Part shown: positions 43,055 to 55,458 of the stretch, in pieces | Layout: the number at the start of each line of letters is the position of its first letter | Numbering within the stretch: the stretch's first letter is position 1 | Assembly: GCA_005792545.1 (NCBI GenBank) | Contig: SXRM01000386.1 | Coordinates: 934 to 64,933, forward strand | Source: Pseudomonadota bacterium | GTDB taxonomy: Bacteria > Myxococcota_A > UBA9042 | Direction of reading: 5' to 3' | DNA length: 64,000 nt | Made by a program: the position numbers and the translations under genes | Notes under the pieces: generated by a model | Told to the model about the DNA's origin: nothing | What the model saw: the letters and a program-made list of their open reading frames with translations, nothing else | The model's database searches: none

Positions 43055-44152
43055 CTAGAAGCCTTTGGCCATGACCGCCGGCATGCCGCGCTCAATCTCG
43101 CGGACGCTGTTGGTCAACACCGCCAGACAGTGTCGATCGTAGGCCTCGATGACGGTGGCGATGCCGATCTGCTCGTCAGGATAGTCTTTGAGATTAGGTA
43201 CTTGACCGCGCCGCAGGCCGTCGCCGCGCCACATGATCTCAAAGCGATTGCCTTTCTCGACCCCGTCGTCTGCGCCCTTGTCGATGTAGACGTAATGGTA
43301 TTGACCGGCAGCGGTCGTCTCGTGGTGGAAATCGATGATGGTGGCCACCAATTCCACCTTGTTGGGCATCGCTCGCGTCAGCACCAGCGGCTCGAACACG
43401 TTGGTCACCAGGTCGCCGCGGCTGATTTCGCTGTAGCTGCGGGTCACCAGCACGCTCACCAGCGGGCGGACCGTGCGCAGAACCTTGCCTTCGCCTAGGA
43501 AGTTGATCTTGTAGCCGACGATCTTGTTGGTCAGCGGATGGACGACTTCGCGCTCGACCCGGTACACGGTATAGCGATCGCCGTCGCGCACGCACGGCCC
43601 CACGAACGCGTCCGGGTCTTTGTCCTTGCCGCTCTCGTCGGAGCACCGGCGCATCGTGAAGCGCACATAGGCCTCGTCCAACTGGCCGAGCATGTTGCGC
43701 TCTTCGCGGCTGGACTCGATGCTGCCCGACTCGCGGTAGTCGCGCGAGCTGATGTAGCCGACCCGGCGGACCAGCTCGACCTGCGGCCGCTTCGGCGCTG
43801 AAAACCGCGACGTCGCGTGGGTGATGGCCTTGGACGCGGCGGCCGCGGCCGGCGCCGAGCGGCGCGACAGGTATAGGACATCGCCAGGGTAGATCTGGTG
43901 CGGGTTGGTAATCTGCGGGTTGTAGCTCCACAGACTGGGCCAGTACCAAGGGTCGTCGTACAACTGTTCCGCGATCGACCACAGCGTGTCGCCCTGCTCG
44001 ACCACGTAGATGCGCTCGCCCGATTTCGCCGATTCCTGTACCGCGATCGCCGGGCCCTGTGCGTCAGGCAGCCATTGAGCGGCGGCGGGCGCACCATGGC
44101 ACAGCCAGGCGGCCCCAACCGCGGCGCAGACCCACTGTGCAGCGGCCTTCAT
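43055..44152 (-). CDS. LysM domain-containing secreted protein
   Basis: Signal peptide is present. The LysM is YVVEQGDTLWSIAEQLYDDPWYWPSLWSYNPQITNPHQIYPGDVLYL. Confidence 0.75.
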   Translation of the reverse strand: MKAAAQWVCAAVGAAWLCHGAPAAAQWLPDAQGPAIAVQESAKSGERIYVVEQGDTLWSIAEQLYDDPWYWPSLWSYNPQITNPHQIYPGDVLYLSRRSAPAAAAASKAITHATSRFSAPKRPQVELVRRVGYISSRDYRESGSIESSREERNMLGQLDEAYVRFTMRRCSDESGKDKDPDAFVGPCVRDGDRYTVYRVEREVVHPLTNKIVGYKINFLGEGKVLRTVRPLVSVLVTRSYSEISRGDLVTNVFEPLVLTRAMPNKVELVATIIDFHHETTAAGQYHYVYIDKGADDGVEKGNRFEIMWRGDGLRRGQVPNLKDYPDEQIGIATVIEAYDRHCLAVLTNSVREIERGMPAVMAKGF

Positions 44153-45006: not shown

Positions 45007-45423
45007 TCAGCGGGTGTCAACATTTGCCCGGGCTTGGCGCAGGTTGCGCAGGCCCGCGCGCAAAGTCGGCGCCACCTTCGCCCAGGCCCGACCCGCGGCC
45101 CGCACCGCCGCGCCAATCGGGCCACTGCGAGGCATTGGCACCACCACCGCGCCCCAGCGCACGGCGCACAGTCGGCCGACGATGGCTGCGCGTGACACCG
45201 GCGGATCGCAGCGATCGCGGGTGTCGCCGCGCAGAATCACACGATCGCCGTCGATGATTTCCACGCGGTGCAAGACGATCGCTGGGGCAGGGCCACTAAC
45301 GACGCCCACGATGTCGCCAACTTGTAGGACATCGACCGCGTCAAGTGCGATCTCGGCTGGGGCGGCCAGTGGCCACATCGACCGGCCGGCAACTGGGTGC
45401 CAGACGCGGGCGCTTGCGGTCAC
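45007..45423 (-). CDS. S24/S26-type (LexA/signal-peptidase-like) serine peptidase domain protein
   Basis: The GTG at 45423 overlaps the rSAM TGA stop. AGRSMWP matches the GDSMxP nucleophile motif. GDIVGVV...AIVLHRVEIIDGDRVILRGD follows the S24 beta-fold pattern with His in place of the usual Lys. The ORF-track start at 45873 is inside the rSAM gene. Confidence 0.55.
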   Translation of the reverse strand: MTASARVWHPVAGRSMWPLAAPAEIALDAVDVLQVGDIVGVVSGPAPAIVLHRVEIIDGDRVILRGDTRDRCDPPVSRAAIVGRLCAVRWGAVVVPMPRSGPIGAAVRAAGRAWAKVAPTLRAGLRNLRQARANVDTR

Positions 45424-46622
45424 GGTTTGCTCGGTGCAGCGAGAACCCGGGCGCCCTGACCCTTGCGAGGTCGGTAGATGGGGAAGACGAATCGCTCCGG
45501 TCGCGGCGGCCGTTCGGACCCCGCGGGGACGCTGGCCCACTGCTCCGGAGCCCACGTCGGGCCGTGGGCGGCTTCGTAGCCGAGCATGCGCAAGCGGGTG
45601 CGGGTATGAAAGTGGCCTGGGGGCTTCCGATAGTCGCCCGTGTTCTTGAACGCTTCGCCTGGGCAATAGAAGCAGGCTCCGCTTCCGCCACAGCTGTGGC
45701 AGGCCGTGCGCTCGCGGTTGGTCCAGTCGCGCAGGGCCAGGCGTGCTGGTGAACCAGACCAGATATCGGCCAGCGCCTGCTGCCGCAGGTTGCCAAGCTC
45801 CATTGGAAACACGACACACGGCCAGACGCCACCGTCGGGGGCGATGTACACGAGGCGCCGGCCGGCACCACACGGACCCTGCGACAGCCGGTCTTTGACC
45901 TGAGCGGTCGGTGGCGGCACCGTTCGGGTCAGTGCGATGAGTTGCTCGGCTCGAATCCGCCGGTCCACCGCCAGGTTCAAGCTGTCGAGACCCTCATTGC
46001 CGGCATTATCGCGTGAAATATCCAAGCCGAACCTAACCGTGCAGCCCAGAGCCACAAAACGGTCGAAAATCGCCGGAATTTCTTCGACAGTTTGGTCCTG
46101 GACGACCACACTCGCTTGCACAGGGACGCCAACAGCCCGCAGGCACTGGATGCCGGTCAGCGTCCTTGCCAGTGATCCAGGATGCCGGGTAAAGGCGTCG
46201 TGAATCTCCGGCCGCAACGAGTAGACGCTGACGTCGACCCGCGTGACCATTTGCTCGGCGTACCGCGCCGCGACGGCGGCATCGACGTTGCCCGCGTGGG
46301 TCTTGATGCGATTCGCAAAGCCCTTTGCCGTTGCGTAGGCCAGCAGCTCCTCAAAGTCGGCGCGCTGGCTGACGTCGCCACCTGACCACGTCAGCAGCAG
46401 CGTCCCCATCGCCGCCAACTGGTCCAACACCGCGCGCCACTCTGCCCCTGTCATTTCGGGATAAGTCGTTCGGTTGTCCAAGTAGCAGTGCTGGCAGTCC
46501 AGGTCGCACCGATAGGTCAGGTTGATGTGCGCCGAAACCGGCACATCCGCTTGCGCGTAGAGCGCCAATGCGGCATCGACCGAGGCCACTTCCGTAGCGG
46601 CCGGACTCGCGGCGGCGATCAT
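45420..46622 (-). CDS. Radical SAM / SPASM-domain peptide-modifying enzyme (maturase)
   Basis: CxxxCxxC radical SAM motif NLTYRCDLDCQHCY. C-terminal SPASM cysteines GPCGAGRR...CVVFP...CHSCGGSGACFYCPGE. The ATG at 46622 overlaps the HprK-like gene stop (ATGA). The ORF-track start at 46928 lies inside the upstream gene. Confidence 0.85.
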   Translation of the reverse strand: MIAAASPAATEVASVDAALALYAQADVPVSAHINLTYRCDLDCQHCYLDNRTTYPEMTGAEWRAVLDQLAAMGTLLLTWSGGDVSQRADFEELLAYATAKGFANRIKTHAGNVDAAVAARYAEQMVTRVDVSVYSLRPEIHDAFTRHPGSLARTLTGIQCLRAVGVPVQASVVVQDQTVEEIPAIFDRFVALGCTVRFGLDISRDNAGNEGLDSLNLAVDRRIRAEQLIALTRTVPPPTAQVKDRLSQGPCGAGRRLVYIAPDGGVWPCVVFPMELGNLRQQALADIWSGSPARLALRDWTNRERTACHSCGGSGACFYCPGEAFKNTGDYRKPPGHFHTRTRLRMLGYEAAHGPTWAPEQWASVPAGSERPPRPERFVFPIYRPRKGQGARVLAAPSKP

Positions 46623-47491
46623 GGCTGGACCGCAGCGAGGCCGCCGCAGGGCAACTGCGGGACCTGTTGCAAGTCTGGCAAAAGCAGCGAAGCCAAGGCC
46701 ACTTCGACCACCTCGACCGGGTCGCTCAGGCAATGTGTCAACACCCCAATCGGCACCGACGCCGTAAGCGCTGCGATGCGCTCCGCCGTTGCAGCTGCTG
46801 CGGCACCTCCGGCGTACCAGCAATGCGGCGCGATTTCCCCAACACATTGAGGCCAATTCGCCCGGTCCACATGCGTCCGGGACCGATCGGCAGCCAGTCG
46901 GACCATGGCGGCAAGGGGCGTCGCCCACGGCAAGTGCTCACCGCGAATTCGTATGGCGTTTTGCCGCCACGCCTGCCACTTGGACGGGTCAGGAGCGGAG
47001 GGCACCAGGTACACCAAGTCGTCGTGGAGTGCGCGATCAACGAACCGGCTTGCCAACGTCGACTTGCCCGCCCCGGAGACACCGCACACCACAAACACAC
47101 CCGACGACAGCGACAGCGCCGCACCGTGAACAAGCAGACCGCCGGCTTGTAACACGAGCGCCTGCAGCATCCACAATAGATTGCTACCGAACTCCCTTAG
47201 ACCACCGACCAAGTCAATCGGTTGCGACAAGGTCAGCGTGCCGGTGCCCTCGCGATGATCCCATTGGCCCCGCACTGACCCTATTCGCCAGCTGCAGTGG
47301 TGCGCGTCAAACTCGTCAAATTCAAGCGCGTCACCTGCCGCAAATTCCGTCGTCGTCACCTCAAGTTCCAGATCAAGGCGCTCGCCGGGTTCCGGCAGGC
47401 ACCACGGTCGCTGCAGGCCGCTCGTATTGACCGGCAGCCTCAGGCCAACGCGGAGCGGACCCAGGCGTACGGTCCGCTGCAACTGATCCAT
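46619..47491 (-). CDS. HPr kinase/phosphorylase-related P-loop kinase (HprK-related kinase, RiPP-cassette type)
   Basis: Walker A GVFVVCGVSGAGKSTLASRFV in a ~290-aa protein. It sits immediately upstream of and translationally coupled to the rSAM/SPASM gene. Confidence 0.7.
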   Translation of the reverse strand: MDQLQRTVRLGPLRVGLRLPVNTSGLQRPWCLPEPGERLDLELEVTTTEFAAGDALEFDEFDAHHCSWRIGSVRGQWDHREGTGTLTLSQPIDLVGGLREFGSNLLWMLQALVLQAGGLLVHGAALSLSSGVFVVCGVSGAGKSTLASRFVDRALHDDLVYLVPSAPDPSKWQAWRQNAIRIRGEHLPWATPLAAMVRLAADRSRTHVDRANWPQCVGEIAPHCWYAGGAAAAATAERIAALTASVPIGVLTHCLSDPVEVVEVALASLLLPDLQQVPQLPCGGLAAVQP

Positions 47492-47494
47492 GCA

Positions 47495-47659
47495 CTATTC
47501 CTGCAACGGGGCTTCTGGCGGACAGCCCGAAGCAAGCAAGGCGTTCAGCGCGGACTCCGCCGTCTGCACCGTCGGCGCGCTGTAGGGCTTGCGAGCGTGT
47601 TGGCGACCATCATCCGCCAGCGGATCCTCCGATGTCTGCCTGAAATTGATGTCGTCCAT
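47495..47659 (-). CDS. Small ORF (54 aa) preceded by a strong Shine-Dalgarno sequence; candidate RiPP precursor/leader peptide: MDDINFRQTSEDPLADDGRQHARKPYSAPTVQTAESALNALLASGCPPEAPLQE
   Basis: AAGGAGAA lies 7 nt upstream of the ATG at 47659. Codon usage is atypically low in GC3 (ATC AAT TTC AGG CAG ACA) for this genome. There is a single Cys near the C-terminus. It sits 4 nt upstream of the HprK-like gene and 38 nt downstream of the giant lipoprotein. Confidence 0.45.
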   Translation of the reverse strand: MDDINFRQTSEDPLADDGRQHARKPYSAPTVQTAESALNALLASGCPPEAPLQE

Positions 47660-47720: not shown

Positions 47721-50700
47721 TCAATACACTACGACCAGGCTTCCGTCCAGCGAACCGATCACCAGATCGACCTGACCGTCACCATTGAAGTCGCCAACCG
47801 GAGCGTAGGCCGTGCCGCCCCAACCCGTATTGGTAGAAGTGCCCCAATTCAGCTTGCCCTTGTTGAACGGATCCTCGATCCAAAAGTCCTCGTACTGCAA
47901 GCTAACTTCAGCGGGAATGGCCGACGCAGGCCGGACCATACCCAGGCGAATGACCACCCGATTGGTGCCGCCTGCGCCAGTGAAAGTCGGGATGCCGTGC
48001 ACGACGTCGATGAACGGGCCACTTGACCCCTGACGGTCGGCAAAATTTCCAGCTTGCATTGGCACCCAGTGCCACTGCCGCACCACGTAGCCGCCCTCAG
48101 CCGAGTAGGTGTCCGTGGTGCCTGTCAGCAATGCACCCGGCGTCAGCGTAAAGTTGGTTCCCAACTTGCTCGCAAGGTACGAGCCGCGCACCCAGTAGAG
48201 CCCGCCGATGCCCGCCGACGACTGGTGCTGGAGCGCAAGGTCCGGAATGCCGTCGTTATCCATCTTGATGACGGACTGGTAGGAGCCGATTTGGTTGGAG
48301 CCCGTCGCTGAGGTGCCGCGTATGGCCACAGCGGTCGCGTCGCCCGTTTGATTGCCGGCGTAGCTCAGCAGGATTTGCACGTCTCCGCTGAGCGGCCGGC
48401 CCTTGACGACGTACGCCGACTGGCCGCCCGAGTGCAGCGATGTGAACAAGTCGTCGTACTGGGTCGGTCCGCTGTCGGCTAGCATGTTTCCGACGCCGAG
48501 CATTGAATTGCCCCAGGGCGACGCGATGTTCTGATCTACCAACCGAATGGTCGCCATGTTGTTGGCGGCCCGGTCAGCATCGGCGTCAATGCTGATGGTC
48601 TTGGGGCTTGCCGAATTCCAGGCGGCATTGCCCGGCAGGACCAGCACCCGATCGTAGGCGTACTTGGAAGTGGGCTTGGTGGTAATGGCGATGTCCGCCA
48701 ACGGCTTGCCATTCGCCGCGTCGCCATTGAAGTTGCCGATGATCTGGGCCTTCCAGACCCCGTAAGGGAAACCGCCCGCGATGTCCTTGACGGTCACGGC
48801 CGGCGTGTCCGTCATGGCCGCGCCTTTCTTGCCCAGGTACACCACGACCGAGCGCAAGACACTGGTGCCGGTGCCGACCGCAGCCACGAGATCATCGACG
48901 CCATCGCCGTTGACGTCGCCGCCCGACGAAACCGGCGCGCCCAGACCACCGGGATTGGTCAAGCAAACGTGGCTCGGATAGGCGCTCGACACCGACAGGT
49001 CGATGTCCGTCACGGTTGCCTGATTGCGACCGTACACGATGCACAGCGGTTCCGCAGCGCCGCCGCCAAGCGCAACGTCTCCCAACCCGTCACCGTTCAA
49101 ATCGCCAACTTTTTGCACCCGGGACCGCATGTCCGCTTTGTTGAACGTACCGCCCAAATTGATCTTTGCGTACCGCAGGGCCAGGCCTGTCGTCGACACG
49201 CTATTCGACACCGGCGAGAGGTTGCCGGCTGCGTCTTGGGCCTGAACCGCAAAGTGCCACGACGACGCCCCGTTGTCGGTCAGCGGAACGAATTTGCAGG
49301 GGTCTGGATTGGCATAGCTGTTTGGCCGAGGATCGGGGCCTTCCACAAAGATCTGTTGTGCGGTGCCTGCGGCGGCAGGTGAGGGAATGGTCGCTGCCGG
49401 CAGCTTGGCGGCGTCGCAGGCGGCGTCAAAGTCGGCTTGCTTGTCCATCGCCACCTTGCTGTAGCGCACCAGGTACTTGTCCGCTTTGCCTGTCGCGCCA
49501 TTGTCGCCAACTGCTGTTAGAGACAGCTTCGCCATTGGCCGCCGCGCGTTGAGATCCGCCGCCTGCAAAGCGGCAAGCACCGGCGCGGCAGGCGCGACCC
49601 AGTCTACTGTGACCACGATCTGTCCGGTCCCGACATTGCCTGCGGCGTCGGTCACCGTTGCAGTGACGGTGTTGCCCGCATCCTCCTGCAGCGTAGCGAA
49701 CTGCAAGTCGATGGTCGCGGGGTTGGCAGACAACACCACTGGAAGCGCATTTGGCTGCGAGACCGCTAGCGCCACAGTCGTTGCGCCCACAGTCCGTTCC
49801 AGCTTGGTCAGCTTGCCGCCACCGAGACCTGTGTCCGTCGCCTGAACCTGCAGGTGGAGTTGATGGCCGGCTTGACCATTGAGGTCCTTCAGTTTTCCTA
49901 CCAGGACCGGACCCGGCCCGGCGCTGGTCGGCACGCCAAGCACCGTACCCGCAACAAAGGCCACTTTGGGCGCGCTGAGATCGGCCTTGAGCGCGAGCGG
50001 TCCAGACGTGCCCTTGACGGCGCCACTTCCATCAAGCGCGATCGCCTCCAGGGTCGTGTTGTCGCCGTCGGTCACCGTCAGCGCAAAGGTAGCCGCTGTA
50101 CCCGTCGGCGGCTTCTTGCCGACCTCCGTGCTGCCCTTCTTAAGTTGGATGTTGGCAATCGTTCCGCAGGGTCCAAGCAAGTCCGCGGTCACGGTGGCAC
50201 TCAGACTCGCGCAGTCCTTGTTGGCCGTTGCGCAACTGGCGTTGTTGAAGGTTCCACCCGCAGGCAGGCCTTTGAGCGACACCAAGCACCCAGAGAGTTG
50301 AACTTTAAACCCGCGCGAAGCCGTCGCGGTGTTGCCATTGGCGTCCGTCACGGTTGCTCGCACCGAGTAATTGGGCGAAGCGCCAAATGGTATGGTGATG
50401 TGCGACCCGGGGCCGCTGGAGATTGTGGACGCCACGGCGGTTGCCGCTGCGACCTGCTTGAACGCGGTGCAATTGGCGAAAGCGGCGTCGCATCCCTCAC
50501 CGATTTCGATCTTGTAGCTTGCGGTGTCGCCGACGGAAACGGCCCACGCGACCTGATAGCCACCTGCCGACGATTCTGCGTCCTGGGTGTCGCCAAACGT
50601 CGCGCCCTGTGCTGGCGTCGTAAATGACACCGTCGGCGGAATGGTATCGACAGTCACTTTGGCGGGATTGGTCGCAACCGTGGCCACATTGCCACACAGG

Positions 50701-53700
50701 TCCCGAACATCGGCCTGCAGCGAGTGGTCGCCGTCGACTAACGTCTTGTACTTGGCATCGGTGAACGTCGTCGTTCCCGCCGTCAGTTTTTCCGTCCCCT
50801 TGGTCGTGGCGCCATCTTTGAGCGTGACGTCCTGTCCTTCTGCGTCGGCAGACTGCGACACGACAACCACGTCAAGGGACTGCCCAACGATGACCTTGCT
50901 GCTCGACGGCTGCGCGAACGCGCCGGTTGGCTTGAGCGTGTCGACGACAAACGGGCCGAGATTCAGCACCGTACTGGTGTTGCCCACGAGATCGGCGGCA
51001 GTCACTGCAACGGTCAAGGTTCCTTCGGTGCTTAAGGCAAGTACGGCTGAGGCCGACTTGCCTGCTGTTGCGGCGGTGGTGGCAAAGGCCCCTCCGCCCA
51101 CCACCGTAATCTGGCCCTCTTCGCTGCCGGTCACTGAGAAAGCAAAGGTGCCACCCGGCGCGCCCAGGTCATCTTTGGACTGGCTCAGGACGTTGAGGCA
51201 AGCCGCCTTGGCGCCCGGCGCCGCCGGCTCCGTGGCAGCTGCAATCGTCGGCGCCACCGTATCGACGAACACGGTGCGTTGCTTGACGCTCAAAGCCGTT
51301 GCGCCAGTAGACGAGGTGACCGGAATGTCAGGTGGAAAGCTGCCTTCAACGACGAGCACAAACTTGCCATCGCCCAGCGTCGCCGCGTTGAACTGCATGG
51401 TCAGCGACACCGGCAAGGTGCCCGCGTCGATCTGCTTGTAGCCGCTTGTCGCACAGTCTGGACCGCTCGCGCCCGAACCTGATGCACACAGCACCATCTT
51501 GCTGCCTGCCGGAAAGCCCGTCGTCGACGCTGTAACGGTGCGGTTGGCTGCCTTGCCCCAAGGCACAGCGCAGGTCCCACTGATGCACAAGTTGGCGCCG
51601 CAATTCGCGTGCGATGTGCAGGGCCCTTCCGAGACATTACTGGGACCGGTGATGCCAATCGATGCCTGCTTGGACTGCACCTGAATTGCGTAGGTCACCG
51701 TCGCGACGTTGCCGGCAAGATCCGTCACCGTAAACACGAGCTTGGTGTCGACCGAATCCTTCAGATCGACTTTGCCGAAGTCCGCCTTGCCGGTGTCGTT
51801 GGTTACTGCCCCAATCTTGGCTTGCAGCGTTGACTTCGCCCCCAACTGGTCCAGATCAAGCGTCACAGTTTGGCCGGCTTGGGCACCCTTGACCGCAACC
51901 GTCAGCACGATCTGCATACCGTCAGTGAACTTGTCGATGTCTTCCACGGCCACGAGCGTGAACTGAAGGTCAGCCTTGGCCGGGGATGCCAATGGCAGAA
52001 ACTTGGGCGCAACGCGGTCCACCGTCACGGTAATTTCTTGCGACAATGCCACTTGCAGTGCCGCGTCGGTCGCCTTGGCCGCCAATTTACAAGCGCTTTG
52101 GTCTTTGAGCGCGACCGCTGTGAAAGTCGCCTTGCCACCCAAAACACTCGCAGTCGCCTGTTTGGGCGGGTCTACGCCACAAGTCACGGTCAGCTCCGCC
52201 CCCGCGCCATCCTCCACATCGGTCACGGTGGCAACGACGTCGGTTACACAGTCTTGAGCGCCAGCCAGGCATTGTGCGCTGGTCGCGTTGAACACCGCCT
52301 TGTCCAGCGGCGCCGTGATGGCCACGGACGGCTTGGTCGACTTGAATGTCACGGTGACTTCGGGCGAAAAGCCCTTGTCTTTGTCGCCTGCGCCCACGGC
52401 TTTGGCCGCGAATAGCACCTTGGTTATCGGCTTGCCAGACAAGCCCGTCACCGTGAACTCGTAGATCCCAGGCGCAGTTTCGGTCACCGTAACGGCCTGG
52501 GTCGCGCCATCGACCAACACTTCGGTGGTCGCGCCCTTGACCGGTGCGCCGCCCACATTGGTGACCTGTGCGACGAATTTGAAGACGTCTGCCACCGTCG
52601 AGATCGCGGTGCTGGGCGGCGAGGTGAACTGGACGATCGGCGCCGCCGAAACCAGCGTCCCAACCCACGGCGCGGCGACCGTCTGATTGCCGACCTCGTC
52701 GTCGGCGGTGACTTGCACGGTGTTCAGACCCGGCTGAAGCGTGACGGCGGCGAACACCACTTTCTTGTCTGCCGCCGTGGTCAACTTGCAGTCCTTTTGG
52801 CCGGACGACGACTGCAGGCAAACCTTGACCGCATCCGCGATGTCGACCTGGACATCGACCTGATAACCCGGGGTTGCCGGCGCTGAGTCCGGATCGTCGA
52901 GCGTGGTCAGCGTGGCTTTGCTCGGCAGCGAGATCGTTGCCGTTGGGCCGGTCGTGTCTAGCGTCAACGTGCGGGTGGCGTCGCTGCACAGGCTCGCGGC
53001 CGCGTGGTTGCCAAAACCGTCGATGGCGTCCAGGTTGAAGGTGTACTCACCGTCCAACAACTTCTGGCCGGCCGGTTGCAAGTTGACGGAATTGGCGACG
53101 CCGCTGTCGGTGGCGGTGCCGACGGCGATCGGATCGAAGACGACCCCAGACGCCGACTTGAGCGAAAGCGTGACTGCGGCGCCTTGCAGGTTGGCGGCCG
53201 ACGCCACCAGAGCCAGCGTCGTCGAATTGGTCTTTGCTTTGTCGGCAGGCGATTGGACCTTAATGCACGGCGCAGGCAAAGCCACCACAAACGGCACCTC
53301 CGCCGAGACGGCGGCGTTCGGCGCGTTGTCGGTGGCGATACAAGCCACCTTGTTGCCGTAAACCTGGGCGTCGATGGCGACCGGCACCAGCAATGTTGCG
53401 CCAACCTTATAGTTCGCGGTGCCGACCGGTTGCTGGCCAAGCGGCGCGCCCAGCACGTTCTTGCGGCAGTACACCGCGATGTCGCTGTCAGCCGTGCCGC
53501 CGTTGATCGCGACCGTGACCTTGGCCTCATACACCAGCGCCGTCGCCGCGTTGCCGTCGTCCTTGGCGAGCCAGGTGCCATTGACCACCGGATCGGTGAT
53601 GGCGAGGCCTGCGACGTTGGCGAACACGGTATAGACGGCAGACGCCGAACCTGACAGGCCGCAAGAGTTCTTGGCGGTGATCTTTAGCGCGTAGGCCTTG

Positions 53701-54812
53701 GACTCCGGGAACGACCACGGCACCGCAAACGAACCGTCGGCTTGCACAGTGGTCGTGACGGTGGCGGTGCCTTCCATGGCCACTTCGACGGCGCCAATAT
53801 CCGCCGGAGTGAGCGTGGTGGCCTTGCCGCTGATGAGTACCTGAACGCCTGCAGCCACTGGATCGGTGTCATCGGTCAGCGTCAGTTGGCCCGGCAGGGG
53901 TGCGGTAATGGTCACCACCGGCGATTCGGTCGTGAGCGTCACCACCTGCACCGGCGACTCGCCCTCGGGACGGTTGCCGCCCGCGTCTTTGACTACCGCG
54001 GTCACCTTCGCGGATGCGCCAGTCAACCCTTTGGATTTGCTAGACAGCTTGACCTGCACTGGCACCGATTGACTGCCGGCCAGCGCGACTTCGGCGGACG
54101 TGACGCTGTTGCCCTCCGCGTCGGTTACCTTGAGGTAAGCGTGCGTGCAGTCGGCCGTGTCGGTCTTGACAGTGAAGGTGTACTGAAAGCCATCGGTTTG
54201 CGGATCGGCGTCGTCGGTCAAACAGGCCGGCGCAGCGACCAGCGCAGCCGAACAGGCATTGCCGCACTGGACCTGAACTGTTTTGCTGGCCTGGCCGACG
54301 GCGCCCGGCGCCACGGTCACGACGACGCCGAGCGTGGATGGCGCTGCCGCACACGGCACAGTGACTTTGTCGAAGCGCGCTGCGCCCTTGCTGATGACGC
54401 TCGGCTGGCCGACCGCCTGACCACCAACCGACAGCACGACCGACGCGCCGTCCGGTGCGTTGGTGGTCTGCACCACCACGTTGACCTGAATGCCGATCTC
54501 TGGAGCGAGGTCGTTCTTGGTGTCCAGGTTGGCCGTGTTGACCGTGCCCTCGAGCGCGTTACCGGTCTTGGTCTCGAGATAGAAGTTGACCGTCGGCGCC
54601 ACGGGTGGCACGTCCTGGTTGCCGACCTCGCCTCCGTCTACCTCTGCGCCGATGTCCGGACAGGCGCCGTCGCACTTCTGACCGACTACCGCAACGTCGT
54701 CGGTGCAGGCGTTGACGATCAAGGTGGCCGCGAGAACGGTCAGGCGAAGCGGACGCCACCATGCCAACACGGTAGACGCCAGGGGATTGCTCGGGGTGCC
54801 CAAACTGACCAT
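47721..54812 (-). CDS. Giant (2364 aa) extracellular lipoprotein with >15 tandem Ig-like/cadherin-like (Big) domains, a Cys-rich insert, and C-terminal FG-GAP/integrin-alpha-like beta-propeller repeats
   Basis: The start Met at 54812 gives MVSLGTPSNPLASTVLAWWRPLRLTVLAATLIVNAC, a lipobox. There are long runs of T/V/A-rich Ig-like repeats. FG-GAP calcium-binding loops include DLNGDGLGDVALGG, DVNGDGVDDLV, DNDGIPDLAL and DFNGDGQVDLVIGS. It ends ...SLVVVY. Confidence 0.85.
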   Translation of the reverse strand: MVSLGTPSNPLASTVLAWWRPLRLTVLAATLIVNACTDDVAVVGQKCDGACPDIGAEVDGGEVGNQDVPPVAPTVNFYLETKTGNALEGTVNTANLDTKNDLAPEIGIQVNVVVQTTNAPDGASVVLSVGGQAVGQPSVISKGAARFDKVTVPCAAAPSTLGVVVTVAPGAVGQASKTVQVQCGNACSAALVAAPACLTDDADPQTDGFQYTFTVKTDTADCTHAYLKVTDAEGNSVTSAEVALAGSQSVPVQVKLSSKSKGLTGASAKVTAVVKDAGGNRPEGESPVQVVTLTTESPVVTITAPLPGQLTLTDDTDPVAAGVQVLISGKATTLTPADIGAVEVAMEGTATVTTTVQADGSFAVPWSFPESKAYALKITAKNSCGLSGSASAVYTVFANVAGLAITDPVVNGTWLAKDDGNAATALVYEAKVTVAINGGTADSDIAVYCRKNVLGAPLGQQPVGTANYKVGATLLVPVAIDAQVYGNKVACIATDNAPNAAVSAEVPFVVALPAPCIKVQSPADKAKTNSTTLALVASAANLQGAAVTLSLKSASGVVFDPIAVGTATDSGVANSVNLQPAGQKLLDGEYTFNLDAIDGFGNHAAASLCSDATRTLTLDTTGPTATISLPSKATLTTLDDPDSAPATPGYQVDVQVDIADAVKVCLQSSSGQKDCKLTTAADKKVVFAAVTLQPGLNTVQVTADDEVGNQTVAAPWVGTLVSAAPIVQFTSPPSTAISTVADVFKFVAQVTNVGGAPVKGATTEVLVDGATQAVTVTETAPGIYEFTVTGLSGKPITKVLFAAKAVGAGDKDKGFSPEVTVTFKSTKPSVAITAPLDKAVFNATSAQCLAGAQDCVTDVVATVTDVEDGAGAELTVTCGVDPPKQATASVLGGKATFTAVALKDQSACKLAAKATDAALQVALSQEITVTVDRVAPKFLPLASPAKADLQFTLVAVEDIDKFTDGMQIVLTVAVKGAQAGQTVTLDLDQLGAKSTLQAKIGAVTNDTGKADFGKVDLKDSVDTKLVFTVTDLAGNVATVTYAIQVQSKQASIGITGPSNVSEGPCTSHANCGANLCISGTCAVPWGKAANRTVTASTTGFPAGSKMVLCASGSGASGPDCATSGYKQIDAGTLPVSLTMQFNAATLGDGKFVLVVEGSFPPDIPVTSSTGATALSVKQRTVFVDTVAPTIAAATEPAAPGAKAACLNVLSQSKDDLGAPGGTFAFSVTGSEEGQITVVGGGAFATTAATAGKSASAVLALSTEGTLTVAVTAADLVGNTSTVLNLGPFVVDTLKPTGAFAQPSSSKVIVGQSLDVVVVSQSADAEGQDVTLKDGATTKGTEKLTAGTTTFTDAKYKTLVDGDHSLQADVRDLCGNVATVATNPAKVTVDTIPPTVSFTTPAQGATFGDTQDAESSAGGYQVAWAVSVGDTASYKIEIGEGCDAAFANCTAFKQVAAATAVASTISSGPGSHITIPFGASPNYSVRATVTDANGNTATASRGFKVQLSGCLVSLKGLPAGGTFNNASCATANKDCASLSATVTADLLGPCGTIANIQLKKGSTEVGKKPPTGTAATFALTVTDGDNTTLEAIALDGSGAVKGTSGPLALKADLSAPKVAFVAGTVLGVPTSAGPGPVLVGKLKDLNGQAGHQLHLQVQATDTGLGGGKLTKLERTVGATTVALAVSQPNALPVVLSANPATIDLQFATLQEDAGNTVTATVTDAAGNVGTGQIVVTVDWVAPAAPVLAALQAADLNARRPMAKLSLTAVGDNGATGKADKYLVRYSKVAMDKQADFDAACDAAKLPAATIPSPAAAGTAQQIFVEGPDPRPNSYANPDPCKFVPLTDNGASSWHFAVQAQDAAGNLSPVSNSVSTTGLALRYAKINLGGTFNKADMRSRVQKVGDLNGDGLGDVALGGGAAEPLCIVYGRNQATVTDIDLSVSSAYPSHVCLTNPGGLGAPVSSGGDVNGDGVDDLVAAVGTGTSVLRSVVVYLGKKGAAMTDTPAVTVKDIAGGFPYGVWKAQIIGNFNGDAANGKPLADIAITTKPTSKYAYDRVLVLPGNAAWNSASPKTISIDADADRAANNMATIRLVDQNIASPWGNSMLGVGNMLADSGPTQYDDLFTSLHSGGQSAYVVKGRPLSGDVQILLSYAGNQTGDATAVAIRGTSATGSNQIGSYQSVIKMDNDGIPDLALQHQSSAGIGGLYWVRGSYLASKLGTNFTLTPGALLTGTTDTYSAEGGYVVRQWHWVPMQAGNFADRQGSSGPFIDVVHGIPTFTGAGGTNRVVIRLGMVRPASAIPAEVSLQYEDFWIEDPFNKGKLNWGTSTNTGWGGTAYAPVGDFNGDGQVDLVIGSLDGSLVVVY

Positions 54813-54862: not shown

Positions 54863-55231
54863 TCATAGCCGCCCGCCCGTGGGTTCGTTGGCGGTGGCGA
54901 TTTGCTTGGCCAGCAGCGTGTCGACAAACGTCGTCACATCCAGGCAGGCGGTCGCCGCATCGACCTGGTAGTCGCGCACGAGCAACTCTGCTAGTTCGCT
55001 GACCGTGGCTGGCGCCGCTGCGAGTCGCTTGATGAGGTCCACTGCCGTCGGGGCCGCGAGGCGGTGAAACGCCCGATCGCCGGTGATGACGAAGACCTCG
55101 CCACCGACGTTTCGCCACGCTGCGCGCGGGTGGATGCGGACGACGGCCGCCGCGGCCGCGGTGTTTGTCGGAGCGCCGGCGCCCAAGACATCGCGATCGG
55201 GATGGACCTGATCAGGTTGCGGCATCTGCAT
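54863..55231 (-). CDS. PqqD-family protein (RiPP recognition element-like)
   Basis: GEVFVITGDRAFHRLAAPTAVDLIKRLAAAPATVSELAELLVRDYQVDAATACLDVTTFVDTLLAKQIA matches the PqqD/RRE winged-helix pattern. The start is uncertain (ATGs at 55231 and 55225, or an upstream GTG). Confidence 0.6.
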   Translation of the reverse strand: MQMPQPDQVHPDRDVLGAGAPTNTAAAAAVVRIHPRAAWRNVGGEVFVITGDRAFHRLAAPTAVDLIKRLAAAPATVSELAELLVRDYQVDAATACLDVTTFVDTLLAKQIATANEPTGGRL

Positions 55232-55376: not shown

Positions 55377-55458
55377 GTTACAGAATTTCACATCGACGGC
55401 GGTTACAGAATTTCACATCGACGGCGGTTACAGAATTTCCCATCGACGGCGGTTCGCG
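55377..55458. repeat. Tandem direct repeat, 25-bp unit x 3.3 (GTTACAGAATTTCACATCGACGGCG), intergenic upstream of the PqqD-like gene
   Basis: Copies at 55377-55401, 55402-55426 and 55427-55451 (one A->C mismatch), plus a partial fourth copy. The unit is much more AT-rich than the surrounding sequence. It lies between the tsaB stop and the PqqD-like start. Confidence 0.85.

Follow-up and report, generated by a model that had tools for sequence, protein, structure and literature searches.

A giant lipoprotein gene of fixed architecture conserved within radical SAM/SPASM RiPP operons of Myxococcota and Bradymonadia

Results

The window, a stretch of 64,000 nucleotides of contig SXRM01000386.1, contains on its minus strand a tightly packed set of genes in the order PqqD-type RRE, giant lipoprotein, precursor peptide, ScmC/HprK-like P-loop protein, radical SAM (rSAM)/SPASM maturase and putative leader peptidase. 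The unusual position that the original prediction gave to the giant gene, inside a PqqD/rSAM cassette, therefore holds, its neighbours being PqqD, Radical_SAM plus SPASM, P-loop and peptidase-like genes. The giant gene (47721..54812, minus strand) comprises 2,364 codons, is read from ATG 54812 to a stop at 47723-47721 with GGAGGA 7 nt 5' of the ATG, and encodes 2,363 aa. The longest ORF (2,465 aa), opening at GTG 55118, would run into the PqqD gene in a different frame, and the starts of orthologues lend it no support. The gaps on either side are nearly as first described: the PqqD gene stops at 54865-54863, leaving 50 nt before the giant gene, and the first ATG of the peptide gene (47683) lies 37 nt after the giant's stop.

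For the precursor, ATG 47659 is a more likely start than ATG 47683 because an AAGGAG ribosome-binding site precedes it, so that the gene would occupy 47495..47659 (minus strand) and encode 54 aa, the alternative start giving 62 aa; the peptide consists of a leader, ...RKPYSAPTVQTAESALNALLASG, and the core CPPEAPLQE. The PqqD-type RRE (54863..55231, minus strand; about 122 aa, the start being uncertain between ATG 55231 and ATG 55225) matches Pfam PqqD (PF05402) at 2.5e-7 and 31.3 bits against a cut-off of 23.4, with weak matches to the lasso_PqqD models of NCBIfam. The maturase (45420..46622, minus strand; 400 aa) contains Radical_SAM (3.6e-18, 66.7 bits) and SPASM (8.6e-12, 45.6 bits) domains according to Pfam, and both its CxxxCxxC motif (C39/C43/C46) and its SPASM cysteines are invariant across 40 homologues; none of the NCBIfam equivalogs matched it above cut-off.

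The P-loop protein (46619..47491, minus strand; 290 aa) resembles HprK_rel_B weakly (TIGR04355, 21.8 bits against an NCBIfam cut-off of 200). It has no precomputed match to ScmC (PF27840) itself; such matches exist for its orthologues P0002 and P0003 and for genes at loci L064, L104 and L107, and across aa 109-260 it shares 45% identity with P0002. The Walker A motif G.S(G/T)AGK(S/T)TL is kept in 33/33 P-loop proteins. A profile search of the PDB returned generic P-loop/PEPCK-type matches only, and an AF2 model built from three sequences had a pLDDT of 39.6, too low for use. Only three proteins were recovered when homologues were sought with this protein, one of them (at L002) a stand-alone ScmC beside unrelated surface proteins.

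The last gene (45007..45423, minus strand) encodes a 138-aa protein resembling S26 peptidases of the SipW/Sec11 signal-peptidase-I type, a putative leader peptidase. Nineteen orthologues all retain its G-x-S-M-x-P, H-R and R-G-D-T motifs; its profile matched signal peptidase I or SEC11A/C in five of six PDB matches, all weak (E 0.03-0.65), and among the 19 members Pfam recognised Peptidase_S26 in five and Peptidase_S24 in four, again weakly (best E 0.006). Stops and starts overlap between the ScmC-like and rSAM genes (ATGA) and between the rSAM and peptidase genes (GTGA, the latter opening with GTG), and scans for consensus promoters and terminators between the cassette genes found nothing.

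The giant begins with a signal peptide and lipobox (54705..54812, minus strand; aa 1-36, ...LIVNA-C36), read from the sequence; the lipobox, ...LTVLAATLIVNA-C36, is atypical in having Asn at -2. By inspection, all 33 orthologues possess a signal peptide and a lipobox cysteine, with endings such as LAAC, LSAC, LTAC and AVGC, and none of them has Lys at +2. With a signal peptide that closes on a lipobox and its invariant cysteine, the giant qualifies as a predicted lipoprotein. There follow about 14-16 Ig-like modules (49512..54581, minus strand; aa ~78 to ~1767), a four-cysteine knot with the pattern C-x5-C-x4-C-x4-C (51570..51620, minus strand; aa 1065-1081) and, at the C-terminus, a FnIII-like domain with a putative seven-bladed, integrin-alpha-like FG-GAP beta-propeller (47724..49742, minus strand; aa 1691-2363, of which the propeller takes up aa ~1880-2363). 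The Ig-like domains, the cysteine-rich segment and the FG-GAP repeats had been anticipated in outline. The tandem Ig-like domains were recovered with Pfam Big_13 (E=7e-18) and an iterative search with internal-repeat HMMs; the cysteine-rich segment, CTSHANCGANLCISGTC, is present, and its four cysteines (1065, 1071, 1076 and 1081) are invariant in an alignment of 33 orthologues; and the C-terminal repeats exceed the Pfam gathering cut-offs of both FG-GAP (PF01839, 26.9 bits against 22.1) and FG-GAP_3 (PF13517, 30.9 bits against 26.9) and contain calcium loops of the type Dx[DN]xDG.

An AF2 model of the C-terminus, built from six sequences and of medium confidence, had a pLDDT of 72.4 and a pTM of 0.73. 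When it was compared with the PDB using Foldseek, the 18 best matches were all integrin alpha chains (E 2e-6 to 3e-5), led by the headpieces of integrins alphaIIb, alpha5 and alphaV (E about 2e-6, probability 1.0), with FnIII domains also matched and a target-normalised TM of about 0.3-0.5 for the integrins. At medium confidence, the model is consistent with a seven-bladed propeller fold like that of the integrin alpha headpiece, with which the giant shares FG-GAP repeats bearing calcium loops; unlike in integrins, the propeller would be C-terminal, distal to an N-terminal lipid anchor, and a beta-subunit is absent.

The Ig-like stalk recalls bacterial surface proteins with FG-GAP and Big_13 domains, but the number of modules and the overall length are nearly invariant between species, in contrast to typical repetitive adhesins. 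Full-length, collinear orthologues from 33 species are 36-68% identical and 2,350-2,411 aa long, and their alignment is almost free of gaps and contains 34 invariant cysteines; the fixed length and near-gapless alignment of these 33 do not fit a variable-repeat adhesin of the Big/RTX type. Among the best 150 matches listed by an exhaustive search, at least 103 representatives reached E<=1e-30, the full-length collinear ones mostly of about 2,320-2,440 aa, and a few family members reach 2,560-4,322 aa through internal block duplication. Exhaustive searching was needed, since the full-length orthologues escaped a word-indexed search made with the C-terminus, which gave mostly generic FG-GAP proteins. 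These also dominated a metagenome scan with the C-terminal alignment, in which none of 37 loci held true relatives or cassette genes.

Comparison of loci showed the gene order PqqD-giant-precursor-ScmC-rSAM-peptidase in 44 cases, of which 41 come from GTDB species representatives of Myxococcota and Bradymonadia. The giant gene occupies the same position between PqqD and precursor in all 44, and is absent from five related cassettes (L043, L044, L047, L048 and the plus-strand cassette of L050). The order survives a fall in rSAM identity to about 30% and stands in no fewer than five kinds of flanking context: loci with 30-39% rSAM identity keep the giant cassette beside a pair of M16 peptidases (L051), a TPR protein (L046, L053), LarB/C/A and a two-component system (L041), rubredoxin, desulfoferrodoxin and an ECF sigma factor (L104), or a Ser/Thr kinase (L107). 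In the main clade the neighbours RseP/TsaB and CpoB-like/LysM are conserved as well, so that only the approximately 12 divergent loci lend the linkage independent weight. PqqD lies directly upstream of the giant in 32 loci, and in six of these the stop and start overlap (ATGA). The search also worked in reverse, since the divergent family members P0237, P0151 and P0167 adjoin PqqD and/or ScmC plus rSAM.

The composition of the giant gene is unremarkable, GC3 averaging 0.83 over 36 loci against 0.84 for the flanking LysM gene; within the window the giant (0.77) is close to TsaB (0.72) and to the other cassette genes, with LysM at 0.85. Recent horizontal insertion was rejected, given a mean GC3 equal to that of the flanks and an identical position in 44 loci. 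The suggestion that the giant was inserted later is therefore sustained only in a deep evolutionary sense, through the giant-less SCM-like cassettes of an Omnitrophota outgroup, and not as a recent event. Functional coupling had been considered improbable should orthologous cassettes never include such a protein and its composition prove anomalous. The opposite was found, and because 44 loci keep the giant in position with a GC3 that matches its neighbours, coupling of giant and cassette is likely rather than unlikely.

The linkage is strong but not obligate, because five cassettes lack the giant and two giant-family proteins occur outside any cassette: P0136, a full homologue of 3,643 aa from genome GCA_054014975.1 that adjoins flagellar genes, and P0081, a paralogue of the C-terminus. 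These exceptions would fit an adhesin-like giant gene that entered an ancestral cassette a single time, between its RRE and precursor genes, and has since been co-transcribed while functionally independent of the peptide, persisting because clean removal from inside an operon is improbable. The outgroup cassettes, the near-identical peptide types of the five giant-less cassettes, the equally conserved main-clade neighbours and the lack of an exporter to connect a cytoplasmic pathway with a surface protein are all compatible with such a passenger. Against it, the linkage outlives every flank and extends to about 30% rSAM identity across the contexts described, the position between RRE and precursor does not vary, and in the six overlapping loci translation of the giant is coupled to that of PqqD. 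Furthermore, the giant-less cassettes are nested among giant-bearing ones in a neighbour-joining rSAM tree (unbootstrapped), indicating that loss of the giant can occur, although retention is the usual outcome. We regard an independent passenger as rather unlikely, if the most substantial of the alternatives.

A homologous small ORF is found in every orthologous locus, with a leader of the form (R/K)xPYxxPx(V/I/L)x(S/T)...LL(A/G)S(G)C and a core that is short, acidic and cysteine-bearing. Among 32 aligned precursors the Y/WxxPx(V/I/L) leader is conserved while the acidic cores vary between species; the distance from YxxP to the cysteine is 20 aa in 20/32, core net charge is -1 to -3 in 31/32 and each core has 1-4 cysteines. 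The choice of Y or W in the leader motif separates two clades of cassettes. The 'LLASGC' of the precursor was considered as a lipobox or signal peptide and rejected, because it has no hydrophobic h-region, Gln stands at -1 in many orthologues and the preceding segment is acidic.

The precursor bears directly on the proposal that the cassette modifies or secretes part of the giant itself, in which the giant would be altered in the cytoplasm, before Sec export, by the RRE together with the rSAM/SPASM enzyme, by the kinase-like protein or by all of them, for example at its cysteine-rich segments. The RRE gene is immediately 5' of the giant and overlaps its start in some loci, and the 34 invariant cysteines, those of the knot among them, would offer sites. 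Precedents for rSAM/SPASM enzymes acting on exported proteins exist: anSME reportedly modifies sulfatases, and is joined by a second example. This is QhpD, which acts on QhpC (PMC7876137). Nonetheless, each locus has its own dedicated precursor, and the giant-less cassettes still hold RRE, rSAM, P-loop and peptidase genes and yield the same type of peptide. No leader-like Y/WxxPx(V/I/L) columns are conserved anywhere in the giant alignment, and a leader HMM did not match the giant (best E 0.087, score 3.9). Paired, fully conserved cysteines in exported Ig-like domains are more simply explained as disulfides, and no exporter is conserved. Since it lacks a leader-like motif, the giant is probably not a substrate of the cassette enzymes, and the proposal in this form is very improbable.

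Discussion

The locus appears to be a RiPP operon of a recognised type in variant form. The hallmarks of rSAM/SPASM RiPP systems are a CxxxCxxC core with SPASM, a PqqD-type RRE and a precursor whose leader is conserved while its core varies, and all are present. The SynChlorMet (SCM) cassettes defined in TIGRFAMs/NCBIfam (ScmC, ScmD, ScmE, ScmF) likewise combine a PqqD homologue, an ScmC-family protein and rSAM/SPASM proteins of the PqqE-like group. An ScmC-family protein is recognised here through orthologues, but there is one rSAM/SPASM protein rather than the two (ScmE and ScmF) of SCM, the window enzyme scoring 83.7 bits against the TIGR04250 (ScmE) cut-off of 400; a clear precursor, the S26-like peptidase and the giant gene are further differences. 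Literature searches on SynChlorMet, ScmC, or SPASM with FG-GAP found nothing relevant.

In the linear polyphosphorylated peptide (LPP) clusters of Bacillota, which lie within cell-envelope loci, YxxPxV leaders are the target of an RRE, a SipW-type peptidase and an HprK-like kinase (PMC13381572). The cell-envelope setting is shared, and the choice of Y or W in the leader splits two clades here also. The similarity of the peptidase and kinase is weak, however; neither an NTP-transferase nor an MsbA-like exporter occurs in the operon or among its conserved neighbours, and an rSAM/SPASM enzyme and a giant are present.

In the qhp operon, QhpD forms Cys-to-Asp/Glu thioethers in a small gamma-subunit, whose leader is cut off by a protease, and the peptide then associates with large subunits that the same operon encodes (PMC7876137). 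In both operons an rSAM/SPASM enzyme is encoded with a small acidic peptide that bears a leader, with a protease, putative here, for that leader and with one or more large exported proteins. They differ in several respects: in the present locus the RRE forms a protein of its own, the putative peptidase resembles S26 rather than subtilisin-type enzymes, there is a P-loop protein, and the large partner would be one lipoprotein of 2,363 aa whose propeller is of the FG-GAP (integrin) type. One of the large QHNDH proteins is reportedly also a seven-bladed propeller. Domains of dihaem QhpA, QhpB, CTQ-forming QhpG and the ABC exporter QhpF were sought at the locus and none was found, and we use the comparison only as a mechanistic precedent, an analogy of logic.

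The presence of the giant in the operons of more than 40 species of uncultured myxobacteria suggests that the modified peptide and the giant work together. We tentatively favour the giant as an anciently acquired, integral member of the rSAM RiPP operon and the extracytoplasmic partner of the mature peptide, a reading to which we give slightly less than an even chance. The RRE would bind the Y/WxxPx(V/I/L) leader of the 54-aa or so precursor, and the rSAM/SPASM enzyme would crosslink the invariant junction cysteine, the likeliest product being a thioether with an Asp or Glu close by, because the cores are always acidic. The P-loop protein may phosphorylate or ATP-activate the peptide and the S26-like peptidase would cut off the leader. 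The giant would pass through Sec, be lipidated and be sorted to the outer membrane or cell surface, where the propeller head could hold the mature mini-peptide as a ligand or as a firmly bound subunit, after the QHNDH gamma-subunit. Integrin alpha headpieces are peptide-ligand-binding modules. The module of the window and the compared loci holds no conserved peptide exporter, and hence no candidate there for the peptide's route to an extracytoplasmic partner.

RiPP clusters often encode immunity lipoproteins, and the giant might instead provide self-protection, as in lantibiotic clusters, or act as a quorum or kin-recognition receptor. Its surface location and ligand-binding type of head would suit this role, as would cores that differ between species behind conserved leaders. 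But a protein of 2,363 aa with a fixed Ig stalk far exceeds any known immunity protein, the module has no conserved signal-transduction domain or partner, and the missing exporter is a difficulty here too; such a function is decidedly unlikely.

A bolder form of the partnership between peptide and giant is a two-part extracellular device not described before, in which an rSAM-cyclised, possibly phosphorylated acidic mini-peptide is the dedicated ligand or permanently bound subunit of an integrin-alpha-like, calcium-binding propeller, held by the fixed-length Ig stalk about 50-70 nm from the membrane. We consider this unlikely as it stands. If it is true, the idea that a RiPP can be a protein's subunit or cofactor (QHNDH, PQQ) would come to cover a machine on the surface of predatory or social bacteria, with species-variable cores that could give specificity, for instance in kin or prey recognition. 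RiPP clusters are usually viewed as factories of small diffusible products, whereas this one retains, in two bacterial classes, a 250-kDa surface protein of fixed architecture between its RRE and substrate genes. A peptide acting as ligand or subunit of an integrin-like head would be a new functional class for RiPPs, would give uncharacterised SCM/ScmC-type cassettes a first function and would open to testing the cell-surface biology of freshwater Myxococcota, which are abundant and uncultured. Even if independent of the peptide, the giant family, with its near-constant length and 34 invariant cysteines, is a well-defined structural target.

Operon organisation

The giant lipoprotein gene predicted within the PqqD/radical SAM (rSAM) cassette is present on the minus strand, with its product corrected from 2,364 to 2,363 aa; it runs from ATG 54812, with GGAGGA 7 nt upstream, to a stop codon at 47723-47721. 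GTG 55118 would open the mechanically longest ORF; this start was rejected, since that ORF runs into the upstream gene in a different frame and has no support among the orthologues. The ORF before the giant (54863-55231, minus strand) is of the PqqD family (31.3 bits, cut-off 23.4) and stops 50 nt short of the giant's ATG. After the giant, the minus strand carries a small precursor ORF, whose first ATG (47683) falls 37 nt past the giant's stop and whose preferred start, ATG 47659, has an AAGGAG ribosome-binding site and gives a 54-aa product; a 290-aa P-loop protein (46619-47491); a 400-aa Radical_SAM and SPASM protein (45420-46622); and a 138-aa ORF (45007-45423). The P-loop stop overlaps the rSAM start in ATGA (46619-46622), the rSAM stop overlaps the GTG start of the 138-aa ORF in GTGA (45420-45423), and the PqqD and giant genes overlap likewise in six orthologous loci (L012, L013, L023, L024, L025 and L032), a pattern which suggests that translation may be coupled along the operon. 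No terminator-like sites were found between the cassette genes of the window. The operon is flanked by RseP-like and TsaB-like genes on its upstream side and by CpoB/YbgF-like, LysM and ApbE genes on its downstream side.

Between the TsaB-like gene and PqqD, the intergenic sequence holds three tandem copies of CCGCCGTCGATG(T/G)GAAATTCTGTAA with a 25-bp period (55377-55452, minus strand), approximately 150-220 nt before the start of PqqD. Its 18-mer core is present three times where none is expected, and the 13-bp core was found in the window organism only. Another assembly of that organism (L003) has only two exact copies of the 13-mer, so that copy number may vary; lying ahead of the first operon gene, the array may be a regulatory repeat specific to the strain. 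Conservation in the region is highest, by a wide margin, for the 365-aa LysM protein encoded downstream of the operon (43055-44152), which is 61-93% identical across species whose giants are 36-68% identical, and travels with the CpoB/YbgF-like TPR lipoprotein gene.

Conservation of gene order

The original prediction offered, as an alternative to functional coupling, that the giant is cargo inserted later between the RRE and enzyme genes. Homologues of the rSAM protein fell into about 75 clusters (40-62% identity), and scanning their alignment over one genome per GTDB species produced 57 loci, in which gene order was called by tblastn and custom HMMs built from orthologues. The arrangement PqqD–giant–precursor–ScmC–rSAM–peptidase was recovered in 41 species representatives, in the window organism and in two loci from metagenomes (L001, L064), with identity between giants falling from 68% to about 25%. 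The main clade alone proves little about linkage, since its flanks (RseP/TsaB and CpoB-like/LysM) are conserved too. At divergent loci, with rSAM proteins 30-39% identical and records assigned to Myxococcales, Myxococcota and Bradymonadia, the flanks differ (an M16 peptidase pair with an S41 peptidase, TPR proteins, or LarB/C/A with a two-component system), and the giant still lies between PqqD and precursor.

The reciprocal test, an exhaustive HMMER search queried with residues 900-1899 of the giant, agrees with this result: 103 representatives at E≤1e-30 were among the best 150 matches listed, and most full-length collinear representatives among these are approximately 2,320-2,440 aa. Of the divergent members looked up, one (P0237) lies in the order PqqD–giant–53-aa ORF–ScmC–rSAM amid rubredoxin, desulfoferrodoxin and ECF-sigma genes; another (P0151, 3,326 aa) precedes a 54-aa ORF, then ScmC, rSAM and a gene resembling the peptidase; a third (P0167) has PqqD directly upstream. 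Nor does composition mark a separate insertion: averaged over 36 loci, GC3 stands at 0.83 in the giant, 0.84 in LysM and 0.80 in rSAM, with no sign of recent arrival. In all likelihood the giant gene has long belonged to the operon and did not enter it recently or at random.

The association is imperfect in both directions. The giant is missing from five related cassettes: L043, L044, L047, L048 and, in L050, one member of a convergent pair. The precursor gene directly follows PqqD in L044 and L048, and L043 and L047 yielded no precursor ORF; the peptides of L044, L048 and the L050 plus strand have a pattern near-identical to that of giant-containing sister cassettes. A full giant homologue (P0136) adjoins flagellar genes with no cassette beside it, while a 1,071-aa C-terminal paralogue (P0081, ENA ERZ1426829), with an FnIII-plus-propeller unit at 47% identity and Dicty_CTDC Cys repeats, lies outside any PqqD/ScmC cassette, with two other radical SAM genes within 6 kb on the opposite strand. 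On such loci would rest the reading of the giant as a frozen insertion, functionally independent of its neighbours; set beside its retention amid differing flanks, this is a possible but less likely explanation. In an unbootstrapped neighbour-joining tree of rSAM proteins the giant-less cassettes are nested among giant-containing ones, and SCM-like (SynChlorMet) cassettes of Omnitrophota form a giant-less outgroup, which suggests that the giant was acquired once, long ago, and was afterwards lost or duplicated on occasion.

The two L050 cassettes (L050:1-6765) are paralogues on one contig, both with W-type leaders; the minus-strand copy has a giant homologue upstream, and the other is ordered precursor-rSAM-ScmC-peptidase. 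Six loci (L019, L027, L029, L034, L038 and L040) come from GTDB/ENA MAGs with records titled 'Klebsiella pneumoniae' or 'uncultured Enterobacteriaceae'; these labels look wrong, since the loci share synteny and 40-50% identity with the Myxococcota operon.

Architecture of the giant protein

The giant begins with a signal peptide and lipobox (…LIVNA-C36), and all 33 full-length orthologues examined have a canonical lipoprotein signal, none with Lys at +2. From what is known of lipoprotein sorting in Myxococcus, the lack of Lys at +2 speaks for an outer-membrane or surface location and against retention at the inner membrane. The domains originally proposed were all recovered. Tandem Ig-like domains are supported by Pfam Big_13 (E=7e-18) and by iterative internal-repeat HMMs, which delimit about 14-16 modules, each 105-115 aa long, from residue ~78 to ~1767. 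The Cys-rich segment is a C-x5-C-x4-C-x4-C knot with all four Cys invariant, among 34 Cys columns that are 100% conserved in the alignment. FG-GAP and FG-GAP_3 exceed their Pfam cut-offs at the C-terminus, where the sequence shows four to five Ca loops of DxNxDG type as well as seven FG-GAP-like segments. In agreement with these, an AlphaFold2 model of the last 673 residues, built on an alignment of only 6 sequences (pLDDT 72.4, pTM 0.73), has as its best Foldseek PDB matches the integrin αIIb, α5 and αV headpieces (E ~2e-6, probability 1.0), together with FnIII domains. Given the lipobox, modules and C-terminal evidence, the giant is predicted to be a lipid-anchored Ig-like stalk bearing a distal integrin-α-like propeller. 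Expanded members (L102, L105 and L107; 4,322, 3,643 and 3,326 aa) have grown by tandem duplication of whole internal Ig-like blocks, with N- and C-terminal parts in single copy; in L102, HMM positions ~960-1755 are present three times.

Precursor peptide and cassette enzymes

The small ORF between the giant and P-loop genes is present in every orthologous locus. Its leader is conserved as (R/K)xPYxxPx(V/I/L)x(S/T)…LL(A/G)S(G)C; counting from where YxxP begins, the first core Cys is 20 residues away in 20 of 32 precursors. Variable, short cores follow (2-25 aa, 1-4 Cys), with a net charge of −1 to −3 in all but one of the 32. The more divergent second clade has WxTPxV…AAL(A/E/S)CC…LP.C. Discrete lasso-type RREs bind [Y/W]xxPx[L/V/I/F/A], the recently described LPP (linear polyphosphorylated peptide) clusters use the same motif, and its Y/W dichotomy is reported to help determine RRE specificity (PMC13381572); the leaders here divide along that dichotomy, with PYxxPx(V/I/L) in the main clade (window 47495-47659) and WxTPxV in the divergent one (L041-L053). 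The cassette is predicted to be a genuine RiPP pathway, and its acidic, Cys-bearing cores suggest that they may carry Cys-to-Asp/Glu thioethers of ranthipeptide or QhpC type.

The P-loop protein belongs to the ScmC family (PF27840, precomputed on orthologues), with a fully conserved Walker A and a weak HprK_rel_B match. The rSAM protein reached no cut-off among NCBIfam equivalogs. GxSMxP, HR and RGDT motifs are invariant in the 138-aa ORF; five of its six PDB profile matches are SPase I or SEC11A/C (weak, E 0.03-0.65), and the Pfam models Peptidase_S26 and Peptidase_S24 hit 5 and 4 of 19 orthologues respectively, recurrent but weak indications of a putative S26-type fold.

The enzymatic part mixes features of SCM cassettes, LPP clusters and thioether-forming rSAM systems. 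It shares PqqD, ScmC and rSAM/SPASM with SCM, but has one rSAM where SCM has two. The LPP pathway relies on an RRE for delivering the leader to a SipW-type signal-peptidase-I-like protease, and on an HprK-like kinase for phosphorylating the core (PMC13381572); the RRE and YxxPxV leader recur here, together with a candidate HprK-like protein and a putative SipW-like peptidase, whereas the NTP-transferase and MsbA-like exporter are absent, as are the Qhp subunits of the qhp (quinohemoprotein amine dehydrogenase) operon. Hence, the window cassette lacks defining features of each of these systems, and our literature search found no description of it or of its link to a giant FG-GAP lipoprotein.

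Role of the giant

The original prediction also suggested that the cassette modifies or secretes part of the giant. Its invariant Cys might recommend it as a second substrate of the cassette enzymes, but no leader-like motif is conserved in it and the leader HMM does not match it; we regard this as very improbable. A surface protein could also be an immunity or sensor component, a role which we consider unlikely. By analogy we infer instead that the mature, crosslinked acidic mini-peptide would pair with the propeller head outside the cytoplasm, either as its ligand or as a subunit bound to it, and this is the most economical of the explanations. It follows the logic of the qhp operon, in which a small peptide with a leader receives Cys-to-Asp/Glu thioethers from QhpD and subsequently assembles with large exported subunits of the same operon (PMC7876137). 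Its main weakness is the missing export route, no conserved exporter having been found in the window operon or the neighbourhoods of orthologous loci.

In the divergent clade, a pair of M16 (insulinase-type) peptidase genes lies directly 5' of PqqD, with or without the giant (L048:3009-8558, L051:534-3151), and L048 also carries an S41/PDZ/CARDB protease 5' of PqqD; these proteases may contribute further processing steps to the peptide pathway.
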